Below, in pieces: positions 28,040 through 64,000 of a stretch of DNA of 64,000 nt; within the stretch, counting starts at the first letter, position 1, and each line of letters begins with the position of its first letter. Origin of the DNA: a virus. Its lineage: Duplodnaviria; Caudoviricetes. Position numbers and translations under genes: made by a program. The stretch is from positions 29,115 through 93,114 of the IMG/VR virus record IMGVR_UViG_3300030433_001899, one strand, 5' to 3'. Under the pieces are notes generated by a model. That model was not told where the DNA came from. It did not search any database and was given only the letters and a program-made list of their open reading frames with translations.

Positions 28040-29421
28040 TGGCACTTAATCCGTTTTTTCTACAAGGTTCTCACGGAGAACAAAGATTAGTTCAAGAGTT
28101 GATAAATGAACAACTCAAGATATATGGTGTTGAAGTAACTTATATTCCTAGAAAGTTCGTAAGGAAAGAGACTATTATTGAAGAAGTAACATCATCAAAG
28201 TTTGATGATAATTTCCTGCTTGAAGCGTATGTGAATACCTTTGATGGATATAGTGGTGCTGGAGATATAATGACAAAGTTTGGTGTAAGTCTCAGAGATG
28301 AGGTTACACTTACTATTTCACAAGAAAGATTTGAAGACTTTATTTCACCATTCTTGGATCAAGAAAGTGATGCTGAAGTTGAAGTAACAATGAGACCCAG
28401 AGAAGGAGATCTCATTTACTTCCCACTTGGTTCAAGACTGTTTGAAGTAAAGTTTGTTGAGCATGAGCAACCATTCTATCAGTTAGGCAAGACATATGTT
28501 TATGAACTGAAGTGTGAACTCTTCGAATACGAAGATGAAATTATTGACACCAGCATCGAAGCGATCGATACCACAGTTGCTTCTCAAGGTCATATTATTG
28601 ATCTCAACCTCTTGTCAGGTGGTGCAGTTGCTACCGCTACGGCAGTTATTGGAACAAACTATGTCAGAGAGATATTCCTGAATAATGATGGTTCTGGATA
28701 CACAAGCACTCCGCTTGTAACATTCACCTCACCACCTGCTGGTTTTACAACTGCAACAGCTGTTGCTATAACCACCACTAGGAATAATATTACATCCATC
28801 AAAGAAATCCTTATCACAGATGCTGGTACTGGATATCAAACTGATCCTATTGTTTACATCTCTGGTGGCGGTGGATCAGGTGCTGCTGCAACTGCTGGTA
28901 TTACCACTGATAAGAAAGGTATTATTCGTGTTGCTATTGGTGGAACTGGTGGTGTTGGTTACACGACTGCGCCAGATGTAACTGTAACACTTCCATCTCT
29001 CACACCAAACAAAGCAGCAGAACTCAGAGCATTTGTTGGTGCTGGTGGAACTATCTCCGATATTCGTATTGTCAACGCTGGTGCTGGTTTCTTCAGTCCA
29101 CCAACCATTGGTGTTGGAACACCTGCAGCAGTTGGTTCTGGAAACTACTGGTTCAACGAAGAGGTTACTGGTTCCAGATCTGGCGCAACAGGCAGAGTTA
29201 AGAGATGGGATCTGGATACCTACACACTTCAGGTTGGTATCACAACTGGTATGTTTGCTCCAGGTGAAACTATCACAGGTGCCAAGTCTGGTGCCAACTA
29301 CGACATCAAGGTTTCTGCAGCAAATACTACAACTGATAAATACAAACAAAATATAGATTTGGAAACTGAAGCAGACGCTATTCTTGATTTCTCAGAATCT
29401 AATCCCTTTGGTACTTACTAA
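28039..29421 (+). CDS. gp14: neck protein gp14 (head closure) with Gly-rich insertion
   Basis: EQRLVQELINEQLKIYG...YIPR; RPREGDLIYFP; PFYQLGK.YVY.L.CELFEY; ends DFSESNPFG. Confidence 0.95.
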   Translation: MALNPFFLQGSHGEQRLVQELINEQLKIYGVEVTYIPRKFVRKETIIEEVTSSKFDDNFLLEAYVNTFDGYSGAGDIMTKFGVSLRDEVTLTISQERFEDFISPFLDQESDAEVEVTMRPREGDLIYFPLGSRLFEVKFVEHEQPFYQLGKTYVYELKCELFEYEDEIIDTSIEAIDTTVASQGHIIDLNLLSGGAVATATAVIGTNYVREIFLNNDGSGYTSTPLVTFTSPPAGFTTATAVAITTTRNNITSIKEILITDAGTGYQTDPIVYISGGGGSGAAATAGITTDKKGIIRVAIGGTGGVGYTTAPDVTVTLPSLTPNKAAELRAFVGAGGTISDIRIVNAGAGFFSPPTIGVGTPAAVGSGNYWFNEEVTGSRSGATGRVKRWDLDTYTLQVGITTGMFAPGETITGAKSGANYDIKVSAANTTTDKYKQNIDLETEADAILDFSESNPFGTY

Positions 29422-59243: not shown

Positions 59244-59310
59244 TATAAATATGTGTGATTGCCTTCGGGGATCACACAACACAAACTCGCTTTCAAAGGA
59301 GCTAATAACC
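59244..59310 (+). promoter_or_regulatory. late promoter and structured 5' UTR of hsp20
   Basis: TATAAATA 59244-59251; hairpin GTGTGAT..CC-TTCG-GG.ATCACAC 59253-59277; CTCGCT...AGGAG SD-pairing hairpin 59286-59301. Confidence 0.75.
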
Positions 59311-59745
59311 ATGGGGAACTTAATGAAGTTTCATACGAAGGATCTGCCTGAGCTGATGGACCGTATAAATAGGTACAGTATCGGCATGGATGATTACTTT
59401 GACCGTCTTGGGACGCTGCACGAGACGCAAAGCAATTACCCACCATACAACCTAGTTCAACTAAGCAACGTAGAATACCGCTTAGAACTAGCACTTGCAG
59501 GTTTTAAAAAGGAAGAAATTAATGTCTACACACAAGACGGAAAACTTTTTGTCGAAGGACGAAAAGAAGAAACAGAAACTGGAGGAACATACGTCCATAG
59601 AGGAATGGCTCAAAGATCTTTCACTAGATCATGGACCCTCAGTGACGAGACGGAAGTTAGATCAGTTAGCTTTGAGGATGGGTTGCTAAATATCGAACTT
59701 GGCAAAGTTGTTCCAGAACATCATCAAAGGAAGGATTATCTATAA
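59311..59745 (+). CDS. hsp20: small heat-shock protein Hsp20 (IbpA-like)
   Basis: NYPPYNL, ELALAGF, YVHRG.AQRSFTR.W.L, FEDGLL.I.L; AAGGAG RBS before ATG 59311. Confidence 0.95.
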   Translation: MGNLMKFHTKDLPELMDRINRYSIGMDDYFDRLGTLHETQSNYPPYNLVQLSNVEYRLELALAGFKKEEINVYTQDGKLFVEGRKEETETGGTYVHRGMAQRSFTRSWTLSDETEVRSVSFEDGLLNIELGKVVPEHHQRKDYL

Positions 59746-59837: not shown

Positions 59838-59921
59838 ATGAACTTTACAGCCGCCACTCTTCTCATTGGAACCACAATGACTCTTTTTAGCAGTTGGACC
59901 CTCGGCAGTGTACTACCCTAA
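59838..59921 (+). CDS. 27-aa hydrophobic peptide (not in ORF track)
   Basis: AGGAGG at 59825-59830, TATAAT at 59799; MNFTAATLLIGTTMTLFSSWTLGSVLP. Confidence 0.6.
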   Translation: MNFTAATLLIGTTMTLFSSWTLGSVLP

Positions 59922-59984
59922 TGGTCCACCCACAGCAGAAATATTTGTAACAACTCCATAAATAAAATTGAATATCGTCGCCGC

Positions 59985-60026
59985 AGGGGGCAACTGGCAA
60001 AATCCAGTTGCAACCCCTATTTTTTT
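59985..60026 (+). terminator. long hairpin/terminator
   Basis: AGGGG-GCAACTGG-caaaat-CCAGTTGC-aa-CCCCT followed by a T run. Confidence 0.8.
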
Positions 60027-60036
60027 GTGTTAAAAT
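60008..60036 (+). promoter_or_regulatory. sigma70-like promoter upstream of ndhD
   Basis: TTGCAA-17 nt-TAAAAT with extended -10 (TGt), embedded in the 3' arm of the terminator. Confidence 0.6.
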
Positions 60037-60059
60037 ATATGTGACTCTTTTCTTATAAT

Positions 60060-61595
60060 ATGCCCTGGTTGAGTCTAGCAATTTTATTTCCAATTGTATG
60101 TGCTCTTGGAATCCCTCTACTTCCAGAGGGAAACAAAGTTGTCCGATGGTATGGTCTCGGCGCATCTTTGATTACGTTTCTGATTACAGCAGTAGGATAC
60201 GTCAAGGGATATGATCCTGCTATTGAAGGTCTTCAAATGGCGGAACGGGTTTCGTGGGTTCCACAACTTGGACTCACCTGGTCCGTGGGTGCTGATGGAT
60301 TGTCAATGCCTCTCATTCTTCTGACTAGCTTCATTACAAGTCTGGCGGCACTTGCTGCTTGGCCAGTTACATTCAAACCGAAACTGTTCTATTTCCTGCT
60401 TCTGATTATGAACGGTGGGCAGATTATGGTTTTCGCAGTTCAGGATTTGATTCTTTTCTTCCTGTCTTGGGAACTGGAACTGGTTCCTGTGTATCTGATG
60501 ATTTCTATCTGGGGTGGAAAGAACCGCCAGTATGCTGCAACAAAGTTCATCATCTATACTGCAGGTAGTTCTTTGTTCATTCTCCTTGCAGGACTTGCAA
60601 TGGGTTTCTGGACTGGTCATGCCAACTTTGAATACACTTATTTGATGGAGCAGGGGTTCCCGAAGAACTTCCAACTCTGGTGTTATGTTGCATTCTTGAT
60701 TTCATTTGGAGTGAAACTACCCATTGTTCCCTTCCATACTTGGTTGCCTGATGCCCATGGAGAAGCAACAGCACCAGTTCATATGCTGCTTGCGGGTATT
60801 CTATTGAAGATGGGTGGATATGCTCTACTCAGGTTCAACTGTCAACTTCTCCCAGATGCACACGCAGTCTTTGCTCCAGTTCTCATCATACTTGGTGCTA
60901 TCAACATCATCTATGCAGCACTGACTTCATTTGCCCAAAGAAACCTGAAGCGAAAGATCGCTTACAGTTCTATCAGTCATATGGGTTTCGTTCTCATTGG
61001 TATTGGTAGTTACAGTGCTCTTGGAACAAGTGGTGCAATGCTACAGATGATTAGTCATGGTTTGATTGGTGCCTCTCTGTTCTTCCTGGTGGGAGCAACG
61101 TATGATCGAACTCATACCCTTCAACTTGATGAGATGGGTGGTGTTGGTCAGAATATGAAAGTGATGTTTGCTCTCTGGACCATGTGCTCCATGGCGTCCC
61201 TTGCACTTCCCGGAATGAGTGGTTTTGTAAGTGAACTGATGGTTTTTGCTGGTTTTGCAACCGATACTGTTTATTCACTTGCCTTCCGTATTACTCTGTG
61301 TGGTGTTGCTGCTGTTGGAGTTATTCTGACTCCCATCTATCTTCTTTCAATGCTTCGTGAGATCTTCTATGGTAAACCAAATGCTGAACTTGTTTCTCAC
61401 ACTAACCTTGTAGATGCAGAGCCCCGTGAGGTTTATATTGTAAGTGCTCTTTTGGTTCCTATCATCGCCATCGGACTGTATCCACGTATTATGTCTGATA
61501 CATATAAGAGTTCAATAGATGCTCTGGTTGCTCGTGACAGGGCAGCGTTGGTCAGACCACATATTGTCCACACCTTCACGCCACCAGGCGTTTGA
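60060..61595 (+). CDS. ndhD: NAD(P)H-quinone oxidoreductase (NDH-1) subunit 4, cyanobacterial type
   Basis: 511-aa polytopic membrane protein with DGLSMPL, FF.SWELEL.P.Y, KLP..PFHTWLPDAHGEATAPVHMLLAGILLKMGGYAL, KRKIAYSSISHMG, LALPGMSGFVSE. Confidence 0.95.
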   Translation: MPWLSLAILFPIVCALGIPLLPEGNKVVRWYGLGASLITFLITAVGYVKGYDPAIEGLQMAERVSWVPQLGLTWSVGADGLSMPLILLTSFITSLAALAAWPVTFKPKLFYFLLLIMNGGQIMVFAVQDLILFFLSWELELVPVYLMISIWGGKNRQYAATKFIIYTAGSSLFILLAGLAMGFWTGHANFEYTYLMEQGFPKNFQLWCYVAFLISFGVKLPIVPFHTWLPDAHGEATAPVHMLLAGILLKMGGYALLRFNCQLLPDAHAVFAPVLIILGAINIIYAALTSFAQRNLKRKIAYSSISHMGFVLIGIGSYSALGTSGAMLQMISHGLIGASLFFLVGATYDRTHTLQLDEMGGVGQNMKVMFALWTMCSMASLALPGMSGFVSELMVFAGFATDTVYSLAFRITLCGVAAVGVILTPIYLLSMLREIFYGKPNAELVSHTNLVDAEPREVYIVSALLVPIIAIGLYPRIMSDTYKSSIDALVARDRAALVRPHIVHTFTPPGV

Positions 61596-61626
61596 CGTGT
61601 TATACTACTAAAGATTATTACTCAAA

Positions 61627-61929
61627 ATGTCTATCAAACTGGTCATACTTGAAACTGGAGAACAACTTGTTGCCGATGTCAAGGAGTTGTTCAAAGGAGA
61701 TAGTATTCAAGGATACATCCTTCATAAACCTTTTGCTGTCTCAGCATCCAGACCTATGTTTATTGAAGAGGGTGAAGATGAAGATAAGACTAGTGTAGAA
61801 ATTACAATGTCTTCTTGGATTCTTCTCTCTAAGGATGAGGAAGTTTTGCTTCCACCAAGGTCTGTTCTAACCGTCGTCAATCCTGTTGATGATGTAGTCA
61901 AACTTTATGAGGAAAGAAAAAATGGATAA
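61627..61929 (+). CDS. conserved hypothetical protein (Sm-like N-terminus)
   Basis: MSIKL..L.TGE...ADV.E; usual gene pair upstream of cyanophage gp43. Confidence 0.75.
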   Translation: MSIKLVILETGEQLVADVKELFKGDSIQGYILHKPFAVSASRPMFIEEGEDEDKTSVEITMSSWILLSKDEEVLLPPRSVLTVVNPVDDVVKLYEERKNG

Positions 61930-62176
61930 AGTTATCAAGTGCTTGCTTCTAGATGTGGATAATGTTATCATATCTGAAGTAGAGGAAGTCGATGCTGCTA
62001 TCGGTGACCCCAACTGTAAACTGATCAAACCGTATCGCTTCTATGATGAAGATCGTATGGAACCCTGGCCAAATGCTACTGACCAGGAAGAACTGATGCT
62101 TCGGGCAGAAGACATTCTGACCATTGCAGATCCAAAACAATCAGTTATTGAAAAGTATCTAGAACTCACTGCATAA
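61922..62176 (+). CDS. conserved hypothetical protein
   Basis: ATG 61922; IGDPNCKLIKPY...PW...ILTIADP; coupled to gp43. Confidence 0.75.
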   Translation: MDKVIKCLLLDVDNVIISEVEEVDAAIGDPNCKLIKPYRFYDEDRMEPWPNATDQEELMLRAEDILTIADPKQSVIEKYLELTA

Positions 62177-64000
62177 TGCGCTTTTATACGAACGTTCAAA
62201 TGGTCGGGGACCACTTCCTTGTTCGCGGTTACGAAAATGGTCGTCATTTCGCAACCCGAGAGAAGTTTTACCCGACTCTTTTTGTGCCCTCTAAAAAGAA
62301 GACAAAATACAAAACTCTTGAGGGTGAATGTGTTGAACCTGTTGAACCTGGAACTGTTCGTGACTGTCGTGAGTTTATCAAGCGATATGATGGTGTAGAC
62401 AACTTCAAGATCTACGGAAACGACAGGTACATCTATCAGTATATTTCTGAGAAGTATCCTGAGGAAGAAATCAAGTTTGATACAACTCAGATCAAAATTT
62501 CTACTATTGATATTGAGGTTAAGTCAGAGAATGGATTCCCAGACGTTGAATCTGCCGCTGAGGAAGTTCTCCTCATCACCGTGCAGGACTACACTACCAA
62601 ACAGATCCGCACCTGGGGTCAAGGACCCTTCAATAACAAACAGCAGAACGTCATCTATAAAGGTTTCTCCACTGAGTATGAACTCCTGAATGACTTCATC
62701 AACTGGTGGATGATTGAGGATAATACTCCTGAGGTCATCACTGGTTGGAACAGTGAACTGTATGATATGCCGTATCTGGTACGCCGTATCGACAGGATCC
62801 TTGGTGAGAAACTGATGAAGCGTATGTCTCCCTGGGGACTTGTTACTGAAAAGGAAACGTATATCGCTGGTCGTAAACACATTTCTTATGATGTTGGTGG
62901 TGTTACCCAACTTGATTATCTAAATCTTTATAAGAAGTTTACGTACAAAGCACAAGAGTCTTATCGTCTGGACTACATTGCCAGCGTAGAACTTGGGCAG
63001 AAGAAACTGGATCACTCTGAGTTTGATACGTTCAAAGACTTCTATACTAACGGATGGCAGAAGTTTGTAGAATACAACATCATTGACGTGGAACTTGTTG
63101 ACCGTATGGAAGACAAGATGAAACTCATTGAACTTGCTATTGTTATGGCATATGATGCGAAAGCGAACTATGCTGATGTGTTCTCACAAGTTCGCATGTG
63201 GGATACTATCATCTACAACTATCTGAAGAAGAGGAATATTGTTATTCCTCCTATCGTTCGTTCGGACAAAGACTCTAAGTATGCAGGTGCATATGTCAAG
63301 GAACCGATTCCAGGAAAGTATGATTGGGTGGTCAGTTTTGATCTTAACAGTCTGTATCCTCACCTTATTATGCAGTACAATATCTCACCAGAGACCCTAC
63401 TGGAGGAACGCCACCCCTCGGCAACAGTTGATAGAATCCTTAATGAGGAGATAAACTTCGAACTGTATAGTGACAATGCTGTTTGTGCTAATGGTTCAAT
63501 GTATCGGAAGGATGTGCGTGGATTCCTTCCAGAGTTGATGGATAAGATCTACAAGGATCGAACCATCTACAAAAAGAAAATGTTGCAGGCTAAACAAGAT
63601 TATGAAAAGACTCCGACTAAAAAACTTGAAAAAGAAATTGCCAGATGTAACAACATTCAAATGGCACGGAAAATTCAACTTAACTCTGCTTATGGTGCTA
63701 TTGGTAATCAATACTTTCGCTACTATAAGCTTGCTAACGCCGAAGCAATCACCCTCTCTGGTCAAGTCTCCATCCGCTGGATTGAGAACCGAATGAACAA
63801 ATACCTGAATAAGGTATTGAAAACTGAGGATGTAGATTATGTTATTGCTTCTGATACCGATTCCATTTATCTTAATATGGGTCCTTTGGTTGAAAGTGTA
63901 TACAAGGGAAGAGAGAAAACTACTGAAGGCGTTGTCACGTTCCTTAATAAGGTGTGTGAGATGGAACTTGAAAAGTATATTGACCGTTGTTACCAAGAAC
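62176..64000 (+). CDS. gp43: family B DNA polymerase gp43 (3'-truncated by window end; absent from ORF track)
   Basis: ATG 62176 MRFYTNV; in-frame DIEV (ExoI), TGWN, SFDLNSLYP (~63334), KIQLNSAYG, SDTDS (~63850). Confidence 0.97.
   Translation, partial: MRFYTNVQMVGDHFLVRGYENGRHFATREKFYPTLFVPSKKKTKYKTLEGECVEPVEPGTVRDCREFIKRYDGVDNFKIYGNDRYIYQYISEKYPEEEIKFDTTQIKISTIDIEVKSENGFPDVESAAEEVLLITVQDYTTKQIRTWGQGPFNNKQQNVIYKGFSTEYELLNDFINWWMIEDNTPEVITGWNSELYDMPYLVRRIDRILGEKLMKRMSPWGLVTEKETYIAGRKHISYDVGGVTQLDYLNLYKKFTYKAQESYRLDYIASVELGQKKLDHSEFDTFKDFYTNGWQKFVEYNIIDVELVDRMEDKMKLIELAIVMAYDAKANYADVFSQVRMWDTIIYNYLKKRNIVIPPIVRSDKDSKYAGAYVKEPIPGKYDWVVSFDLNSLYPHLIMQYNISPETLLEERHPSATVDRILNEEINFELYSDNAVCANGSMYRKDVRGFLPELMDKIYKDRTIYKKKMLQAKQDYEKTPTKKLEKEIARCNNIQMARKIQLNSAYGAIGNQYFRYYKLANAEAITLSGQVSIRWIENRMNKYLNKVLKTEDVDYVIASDTDSIYLNMGPLVESVYKGREKTTEGVVTFLNKVCEMELEKYIDRCYQE

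Follow-up and report, generated by a model that had tools for sequence, protein, structure and literature searches.

A phage-encoded NdhD1-type subunit of NDH-1L in a cassette slot of the cyanomyovirus replication module

Why a phage should carry the gene for a proton-channel subunit of its host's electron-transport machinery is the question raised by a 64,000-nucleotide stretch of viral DNA (Duplodnaviria; Caudoviricetes), positions 29,115 to 93,114 of the IMG/VR record IMGVR_UViG_3300030433_001899. This stretch, henceforth termed the window, makes up the final 64 kb of a linear record of 93 kb whose completeness is estimated at 48%. Its forward strand contains at 60060..61595 the gene ndhD, which encodes a 511-residue NdhD1-type antiporter-like subunit of NDH-1L, as judged from the open reading frame (ORF), profile, tree and structure matches. 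NdhD1 is the NuoM/ND4-type proton-channel subunit of NDH-1. Together with NdhF1, NdhP and NdhQ it converts the NDH-1M core into NDH-1L, the form that serves respiration and the cyclic flow of electrons around photosystem I (PSI). NDH-1L is the re-entry point for ferredoxin and NADPH electrons into the plastoquinone pool and thereby determines how ATP and NADPH are balanced in the most abundant phototrophs of the ocean. The source of the window, which also encodes gp23, a prohead protease, a scaffold protein, UvsY and gp45, is a T4-like cyanomyovirus, and ndhD lies in its replication module. We assign a probability of about 0.7 to the reading that this ORF is a functional phage ndhD1, captured once, held as a cassette in a defined slot and sustaining host NDH-1L for ATP supply.

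The reading frame opens with ATG and contains no internal stop. A preliminary description of the locus had recorded an intact, full-length NdhD with the motifs WELE, LLKMG and HTWLPDAH, and these are located at residues 137-140, 248-252 and 226-233, respectively. The product scores 926.8 bits (cut-off 827) against the whole-protein hidden Markov model NF002713 of NCBIfam and also matches Pfam PF00361. Its closest solved chain is NdhD1 of Thermosynechococcus (T.) elongatus NDH-1L (6hum_D, 737 bits), compared with 294 bits for the NdhD3 chain 6tjv_D. An AlphaFold2 model (predicted local distance difference test 70.8, predicted template modelling score 0.77) recovers the antiporter-like multi-helix fold, with the discontinuous-helix regions modelled at low confidence. 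Foldseek aligned this model to 6khi_D over 499 columns with template modelling (TM) scores of 0.90/0.91, a root-mean-square deviation of 2.9 and 68% identity; for NdhD3 of NDH-1MS (6tjv_D) the values were 0.84 and 37%. Neither the 47 viral copies nor the cellular homologues vary at residues E138, E140, K219, K250, K297, H307, H333 and E392. By motif, and in NuoM helix numbers, we take the channel residues of NdhD to be the Glu of transmembrane helix 5, the Lys of helices 7 and 8, a His and the Glu of helix 12. The phage protein shares these Glu/Lys/His residues and the orthologue group with T. elongatus NdhD1 (PDB 6HUM, 6KHI, 6NBY; 68% identity, TM 0.90). It differs from cyanobacterial NdhD1 in being virus-encoded, about 15 residues shorter than the picocyanobacterial protein and phage-like in base composition.

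NdhD paralogues distinguish the NDH-1 isoforms, and the preliminary description had called the gene D1/D2-type, a call that the following comparisons bear out and narrow to NdhD1. Marine Synechococcus genomes contain three NdhD paralogues with approximately 78%, 54% and 39% identity to the phage protein (A, B and C). The Prochlorococcus genome searched has A and B; a D3/D4-type paralogue was not found in this single genome, which may be incomplete. Paralogue A scores 1013 bits on NF002713 and, like the phage protein, passes its threshold of 827. Paralogues B and C fail it: B reaches 659 bits and has NF009212 as its best family, and the best families of C are NF005060 and NF005611. The D3/D4 models gave the phage protein only 388 bits (NF005060, cut-off 747) and 375 bits (NF005611, cut-off 764), and the MrpA/MrpD models 126-142 bits against cut-offs of 542-1104. 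A paralogue tree, which included all NdhD paralogues of five beta-cyanobacterial genomes, resolved a D1/D2 and a D3/D4 super-clade with support 100 each. Within the former, all viral copies fall into an NdhD1 group (support 100) that also takes in alpha-cyanobacterial paralogue A and the beta-cyanobacterial copies with 69% identity, and to which the D2-like groups and paralogue B do not belong. Paralogue A and the viral clade join with support 100, and the viral clade itself, likewise at 100, nests in the picocyanobacterial branch of the group (support 100). A second tree of 132 rows agrees with this placement, and the clustering with D3/D4 or Mrp antiporters that would have spoken for another identity appeared in neither tree nor profile scores. 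Because the NF002713 score, both trees and the sequence and fold match to T. elongatus NdhD1 concur, we assign the phage gene to ndhD1 rather than to D2, D3/D4 or Mrp, the name D1 following from the closest solved chain in a tree that holds no labelled D2 sequence.

The gene belongs to a viral lineage of its own. A scan of IMG/VR returned 61 contigs from about 39 datasets with NdhD proteins 82-99% identical to that of the window, and three cultured phages, S-SCSM2R, S-8S56 and S-8S53, carry copies with 84-87% protein identity. The best of 591 cellular matches reached only 79%. In the 132-row tree, the 47 full-length viral copies form one clade (support 100) on a stem of 0.40, and their sister is the NdhD1 clade of marine Synechococcus and Prochlorococcus (support 96); across both trees the stem branch from hosts to viral clade measures 0.27-0.40 substitutions per site. 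As the viral copies form one clade on a long stem, sister to marine host NdhD1, the phylogeny points to a single old capture from a marine picocyanobacterium, probably followed by diversification within phages. The G+C content at third codon positions (GC3) of phage ndhD, 0.39, falls among that of its phage neighbours (0.36-0.44), compared with 0.69-0.82 for Synechococcus ndhD. Pairwise ratios of nonsynonymous to synonymous substitution (dN/dS) lie in the range 0.05-0.09 among members of the viral clade; hosts compared with one another give 0.08. Cellular homologues share 26 conserved charged or His columns, none of which is lost in any of the 47 viral copies, and 250 of the 281 columns conserved in NdhD1 are retained in the viral clade. 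Among the cellular records, two contigs (L080 and L113) belong to metagenome-assembled genomes that bear the labels Asaia bogorensis and Tabrizicola sp.; the NdhD1 on them is picocyanobacterial, being identical or nearly identical to Vulcanococcus/Cyanobium-type copies, and these records are probably mis-binned or mislabelled.

From the identity, orthology and intactness of the gene, the purifying selection on it, its conserved site, its cassette anatomy and its co-carriage with ndhP, gnd and zwf, we infer when it is expressed, that it assembles into NDH-1L and what physiological effect follows. An ancestral cyanomyovirus would have captured ndhD1 once from a marine picocyanobacterium, and the gene would since have been inherited and diversified in phages. 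During infection it would be read from the sigma70-like promoter of its slot and, in the early-to-middle phase, would probably share transcripts with the DNA-polymerase operon. In the NDH-1L of the host, the phage NdhD would most likely occupy the place of NdhD1, such that the NDH-1L pool would be maintained or enlarged while host gene expression collapses. Electrons supplied by PSI ferredoxin and by NADPH from a phage-boosted pentose-phosphate pathway could then continue to reduce plastoquinone with proton pumping, yielding ATP for phage replication. A bias towards NDH-1L, and hence towards cyclic flow, respiration and ATP, is plausible.

Further genes carried with ndhD bear on this role. NdhP and NdhQ sandwich NdhD and stabilize NDH-1L (PMC6992706). 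The NdhP of S-SCSM2R is a true NdhP (6khi_P, E 3.7e-9), and ndhP is also present in G006 (82% identity), the only 100%-complete ndhD-bearing IMG/VR genome, in S-8S56 (ndhP-like) and in contigs L009-L011. A per-genome search did not find it in the ndhD-less phage S-SRM01. The preliminary description had stated that no other ndh gene occurs in the window; for ndhP this holds across the whole 93-kb contig, that is, across about 48% of the genome. A tblastn search of all phage records with ndhP recovered only the query itself, a 44-residue query being weak in 2.3 Gb. PTOX and psbA/D occur in both ndhD genomes searched, the complete G006 and the S-8S56 record; PTOX and psbA/psbD were not found in the window's own contig, which misses about half the genome. 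Complete ndhD phages also carry pentose-phosphate genes, and in L009-L011, from three datasets, the slot itself holds an island (L009:6001-12758) of ndhD, a 216-residue ORF, two small ORFs, gnd, ndhP (E 1e-4 against 6khi_P), zwf and a 2-oxoglutarate oxygenase gene, followed by two DUF6561 genes. The PHROG label "ferredoxin" (phrog_3704) was not adopted for the 216-residue ORF, which is cysteine-poor and has no Pfam match. The idea that the phage favours NDH-1L gains indirect support from the co-carriage of ndhP, PTOX and psbA/D and from this island of one lineage. By joining ndhD physically to ndhP, the gene of its clamp subunit, and to gnd and zwf, which encode the two pentose-phosphate enzymes that produce NADPH, the island is the best evidence here, albeit indirect, for a role in keeping NDH-1L supplied.

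Several points weigh against the proposed role. The core acquires NdhD1 together with NdhF1, pairwise; ndhF1 is not carried by the phage, and extra NdhD1 alone may not raise NDH-1L. The viral C-terminus is about 15 residues shorter than that of hosts, in a tail that is variable among hosts and poorly modelled. Co-occurrence with ndhP comes from a handful of genomes, and ndhP is also reported, per PMC12801897, in P-TIM68, a phage with no reported ndhD. The same study gives photosystem II fluorescence parameters as the only photosynthesis readout for S-SCSM2R. Finally, ndhD is absent from most close relatives and is therefore dispensable or useful only in some conditions. The preliminary description had called viral ndhD uncommon, which applies to this backbone, where the gene occupies the slot in 11 of 74 informative loci sharing it, and is relative, as 61 IMG/VR contigs carry the gene.

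A different benefit would arise if viral NdhD1 competed with NdhD3/D4 for the NDH-1M core, depleting the CO2-uptake complexes and diverting energy from carbon fixation to ATP, along the lines of the subunit swap that the preliminary description had envisaged. The core is indeed common to the isoforms (PMC6992706), marine Synechococcus genomes contain one D3/D4-type paralogue besides D1 and D2-like copies, and the pentose-phosphate genes of complete ndhD phages fit a shift away from the Calvin cycle. However, no ndhF1 accompanies ndhD, and the sequence gives no sign of altered partner choice. The Prochlorococcus genome searched is moreover without a D3/D4-type paralogue, with the reservation that it may be incomplete, and S-SCSM2R infects both genera according to PMC12801897. 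A swap at the expense of D3/D4 complexes therefore cannot be the general role; competition would be at most a side effect in Synechococcus hosts, and we consider it unlikely as the explanation for this gene.

The long viral stem (0.27-0.40 substitutions per site), eight clade-specific substitutions and the shorter C-terminal tail might instead be taken as marks of a subunit that changes NDH-1L by rendering it uncoupled, differently regulated or dominant-negative. Yet the signature changes are all conservative (L->M, L->I, F->Y, R->K, A->S; L60M, F318Y and R367K are among them), the conserved channel residues are intact in every copy, 98% of positions in residues 301-350 equal the host consensus, and dN/dS equals that of hosts, which makes an altered function improbable. 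That host DNA was mis-assembled into a viral contig, or that a recent capture is drifting without function, might be suspected of a linear metagenomic contig about 48% complete. A chimeric assembly, contamination with host DNA and a passenger gene in decay are nevertheless all contradicted, which leaves next to no likelihood for them, because the same junctions, with no chimeric one encountered, recur in cultured S-SCSM2R and across dozens of assemblies made independently, no cellular sequence exceeds 79% identity, GC3 lies at the phage value, and the viral copies form a single clade with retained channel residues, low dN/dS and hence strong purifying selection.

The reading as a captured, functional ndhD1 that sustains NDH-1L can be extended further, although we advance this extension as a speculation with the odds against it. 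Some cyanomyoviruses may carry a kit of NDH-1L distal-arm parts, comprising NdhD1, the clamp NdhP and possibly more single-helix proteins, which in one lineage would be fused with gnd/zwf to build a route from pentose-phosphate NADPH via NDH-1L to plastoquinone; the slot, with or without ndhD, would then act as a switch under environmental selection. Candidates for further small subunits were searched for. No NdhQ match was obtained for S-SCSM2R ORF223, a 27-residue ORF after zwf or S-SCSM2R ORF228, in comparisons made without a picocyanobacterial NdhQ reference, and the gap after gp23 in the window holds no single-helix micro-ORF. As a separate observation, a conserved single-helix protein of 54-58 residues ending in ...HKYGWEHWEPF.K is encoded 80-160 nucleotides after ndhP; it corresponds to S-SCSM2R ORF228 (L160:17843-18019) and its G006 homologue (L161:1793-1957). 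NDUFB5 is a distal-arm accessory subunit of mitochondrial complex I. It was the only PDB match to these two proteins, at a non-significant E of about 0.5, and was not used.

The genomic setting of ndhD is highly regular. The gene order is gp44, dam methylase, gp62, regA, hsp20, ndhD, two DUF6561 genes and gp43, which confirms the position between hsp20 and a gene pair preceding gp43 given in the preliminary description, with the pair now identified by Pfam. Upstream of the slot, and like all features given below on the forward strand, hsp20 (59251..59745; Pfam PF00011, E 1.7e-16) encodes a small heat-shock protein as a backbone neighbour. Downstream, the DUF6561 pair (61627-61929 and 61907-62176; Pfam PF20198), likewise backbone, precedes the 5' part of the DNA polymerase gene gp43 (62176..63999; Pfam PF00136, PF03104), which runs off the window end. 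The order regA-hsp20-ndhD-DUF6561-DUF6561-gp43 is found in about 55 of the 61 contigs and in S-SCSM2R, and gp43 identity among contigs sharing the ndhD slot spans 62-97%. In ndhD-less relatives (S-SRM01, S-SKS1 and many IMG/VR contigs), hsp20 leads straight to DUF6561.

The sequence between hsp20 and ndhD revealed how the gene is embedded. A composite terminator/promoter element, recognized by fold, promoter scan and conservation, occupies 59985..60036 and resembles the promoter(early) stem-loop (PeSL) elements of T4-type phages. It consists of a stem-loop (59985-60018; -20.7 kcal/mol, z -2.2), a T-run (60020-60026), a -35-like TTGCAA (60008-60013) inside the 3' arm of the stem and, with a spacer of 17, a TG-extended -10 box TAAAAT (60031-60036). 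The element is common to ndhD-bearing and ndhD-less phages, and in the latter it lies 25-30 nucleotides before the start codon of DUF6561a, the first of the pair. Seven ndhD-less contigs are homologous to the window in nucleotide sequence as far as 60036/60037, the last base of the -10 box, where this homology ends. The 23 nucleotides that follow (60037..60059), placed by this homology end, form the ndhD leader; they open the insert that ndhD-less relatives do not have, and contain no Shine-Dalgarno sequence. A similar leader precedes ndhD at a tail-fibre site in contig L024. The preliminary description had credited the gene with its own sigma70-like promoter. Since the conserved element also stands upstream of DUF6561a in ndhD-less relatives, it belongs to the backbone as the promoter of the DUF6561-gp43 operon, and ndhD is a cassette lying behind it. 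The pair probably intended, TTAAAA-18-TATAAT, is the top-ranked hit of the promoter scan and ends at 60059 against the ATG; it was rejected as a conserved promoter, as it is not kept in relatives. About 20 nucleotides upstream of the stem-loop, a CATAAATA box like a T4-type late promoter was read from the sequence (59957..59964), and ATAAATA occurs at the same place in L009, L029, L215 and S-SRM01. If this box is active, late transcripts would begin with the hairpin.

At the right edge of the cassette, alignment pairs TTATACT (61600..61606) with the GTTATAAT/GCTATAAT box found before DUF6561a in phages whose site is empty, and TTATACT is on this basis the remnant -10 of a second promoter/stem-loop element. 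The full downstream element is retained in S-SCSM2R and L024. This junction is placed only at about 61600, DUF6561a being too divergent for nucleotide alignment. No terminator was detected between ndhD and DUF6561a in a scan of 61595-61627, and co-transcription with the gp43 operon is for this reason probable. In the ndhD-less contig L215 (2630-2790), two promoter/stem-loop elements stand in tandem with no gene between them, an arrangement that looks like an emptied or unfilled cassette slot. PeSL elements flank plastic adaptive genes even in the conserved core of T4-type genomes (PMC2839356; PMC4122927). The slot described here has the same overlap of a stem-loop with a sigma70-like early promoter, and within the conserved core such elements border a non-essential adaptive gene, present in some close relatives and absent from others. 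PeSLs were described in coliphages, vibriophages and related T4-like phages, with cyanophages unmentioned in the 2014 paper (PMC4122927).

Copies of ndhD also occur elsewhere in phage genomes. The gene lies between regA and hsp20 in L021 and L022, after a 1943-residue tail-fibre gene in L023-L025, and between psbD and thyX in S-8S56 (L002). At each of these three alternative sites it stands behind its own stem-loop/T-run/TATA element, and the copies belong to the same monophyletic clade. Four distinct sites within one such clade imply that ndhD moves within phage genomes, we infer by recombination through the elements, and by parsimony the hsp20/DUF6561 slot would be ancestral and the other sites relocations.

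Between hsp20 and the promoter element, translation and conservation identify a further backbone gene (59838..59921), preceded by an AGGAGG ribosome-binding site and encoding a hydrophobic peptide of 27 residues. The peptide is charge-free and single-helix, with the consensus MNLTAATLxIGTxMTLFS..TLGS.LP, and its gene is kept in at least 140 IMG/VR contigs, every time after hsp20. It was considered as an ndhD-linked small subunit, for example NdhQ, and rejected, as in 63 of the 80 loci fetched DUF6561/gp43 come directly after it and ndhD is missing. Searches of PDB, Pfam and NCBIfam, including a profile query, gave zero matches. In S-SCSM2R, the corresponding ORF (L001:4363-4443) is present without annotation.

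The two cultured systems closest to the window differ from it in instructive ways. The ndhD of S-SCSM2R (ORF157; PQ898602; BMC Biol 2025, PMC12801897) belongs to the same viral clade, occupies the identical genomic site and encodes a protein with 85-87% identity, but gp43 is only about 67% identical, an extra 76-residue ORF precedes ndhD and an intact stem-loop element follows it. In its accessible part that paper offers neither an isoform phylogeny nor an analysis of selection nor an assay specific to ndhD. In S-8S56 and S-8S53 (OQ504984, OQ504982; Kanaloavirus), ndhD is of the same clade, whereas its S-8S56 location is the variable psbD-thyX region with a separate element. Because cultured ndhD phages (S-SCSM2R, S-8S56) exist beside close ndhD-less relatives, ndhD function is directly testable.

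Other viral NDH-1 genes and the psbA paradigm likewise concern host-derived subunits of photosynthetic electron-transport complexes that serve as auxiliary metabolic genes of cyanomyoviruses. Discussion usually centres on small accessory subunits; virus-encoded NdhD1, a core proton-pumping subunit, is larger than these and more central. If the proposed role is true, phages maintain or remodel NDH-1L during infection. With 61 contigs from about 39 datasets, viral ndhD is widespread, and its slot is empty in most relatives. To what was known, the present analysis adds D1 orthology, a single origin, host-level constraint, the slot and cassette anatomy, the presence/absence polymorphism and the association with ndhP, gnd and zwf. 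Viral ndhD itself was already known, from metagenomes in 2011 and at the exact site in S-SCSM2R in 2025. A 2023 review (PMC10452541) credits the finding of viral ndhD among marine metagenomes to Sharon et al. 2011, and that of metagenomic viral ndhD, ndhI and ndhP to Sharon et al. 2011 and Alperovitch-Lavy et al. 2011; PMC12801897 cites ndhP in P-TIM68. These other viral NDH-1 reports concern other subunits or metagenomic fragments. PMC12801897 (December 2025) calls its ndhD, at exactly the site described here, the first in a cyanophage genome. The GenBank records of S-8S53 (OQ504982) and S-8S56 (OQ504984) already annotate ndhD, despite this statement of a first report.

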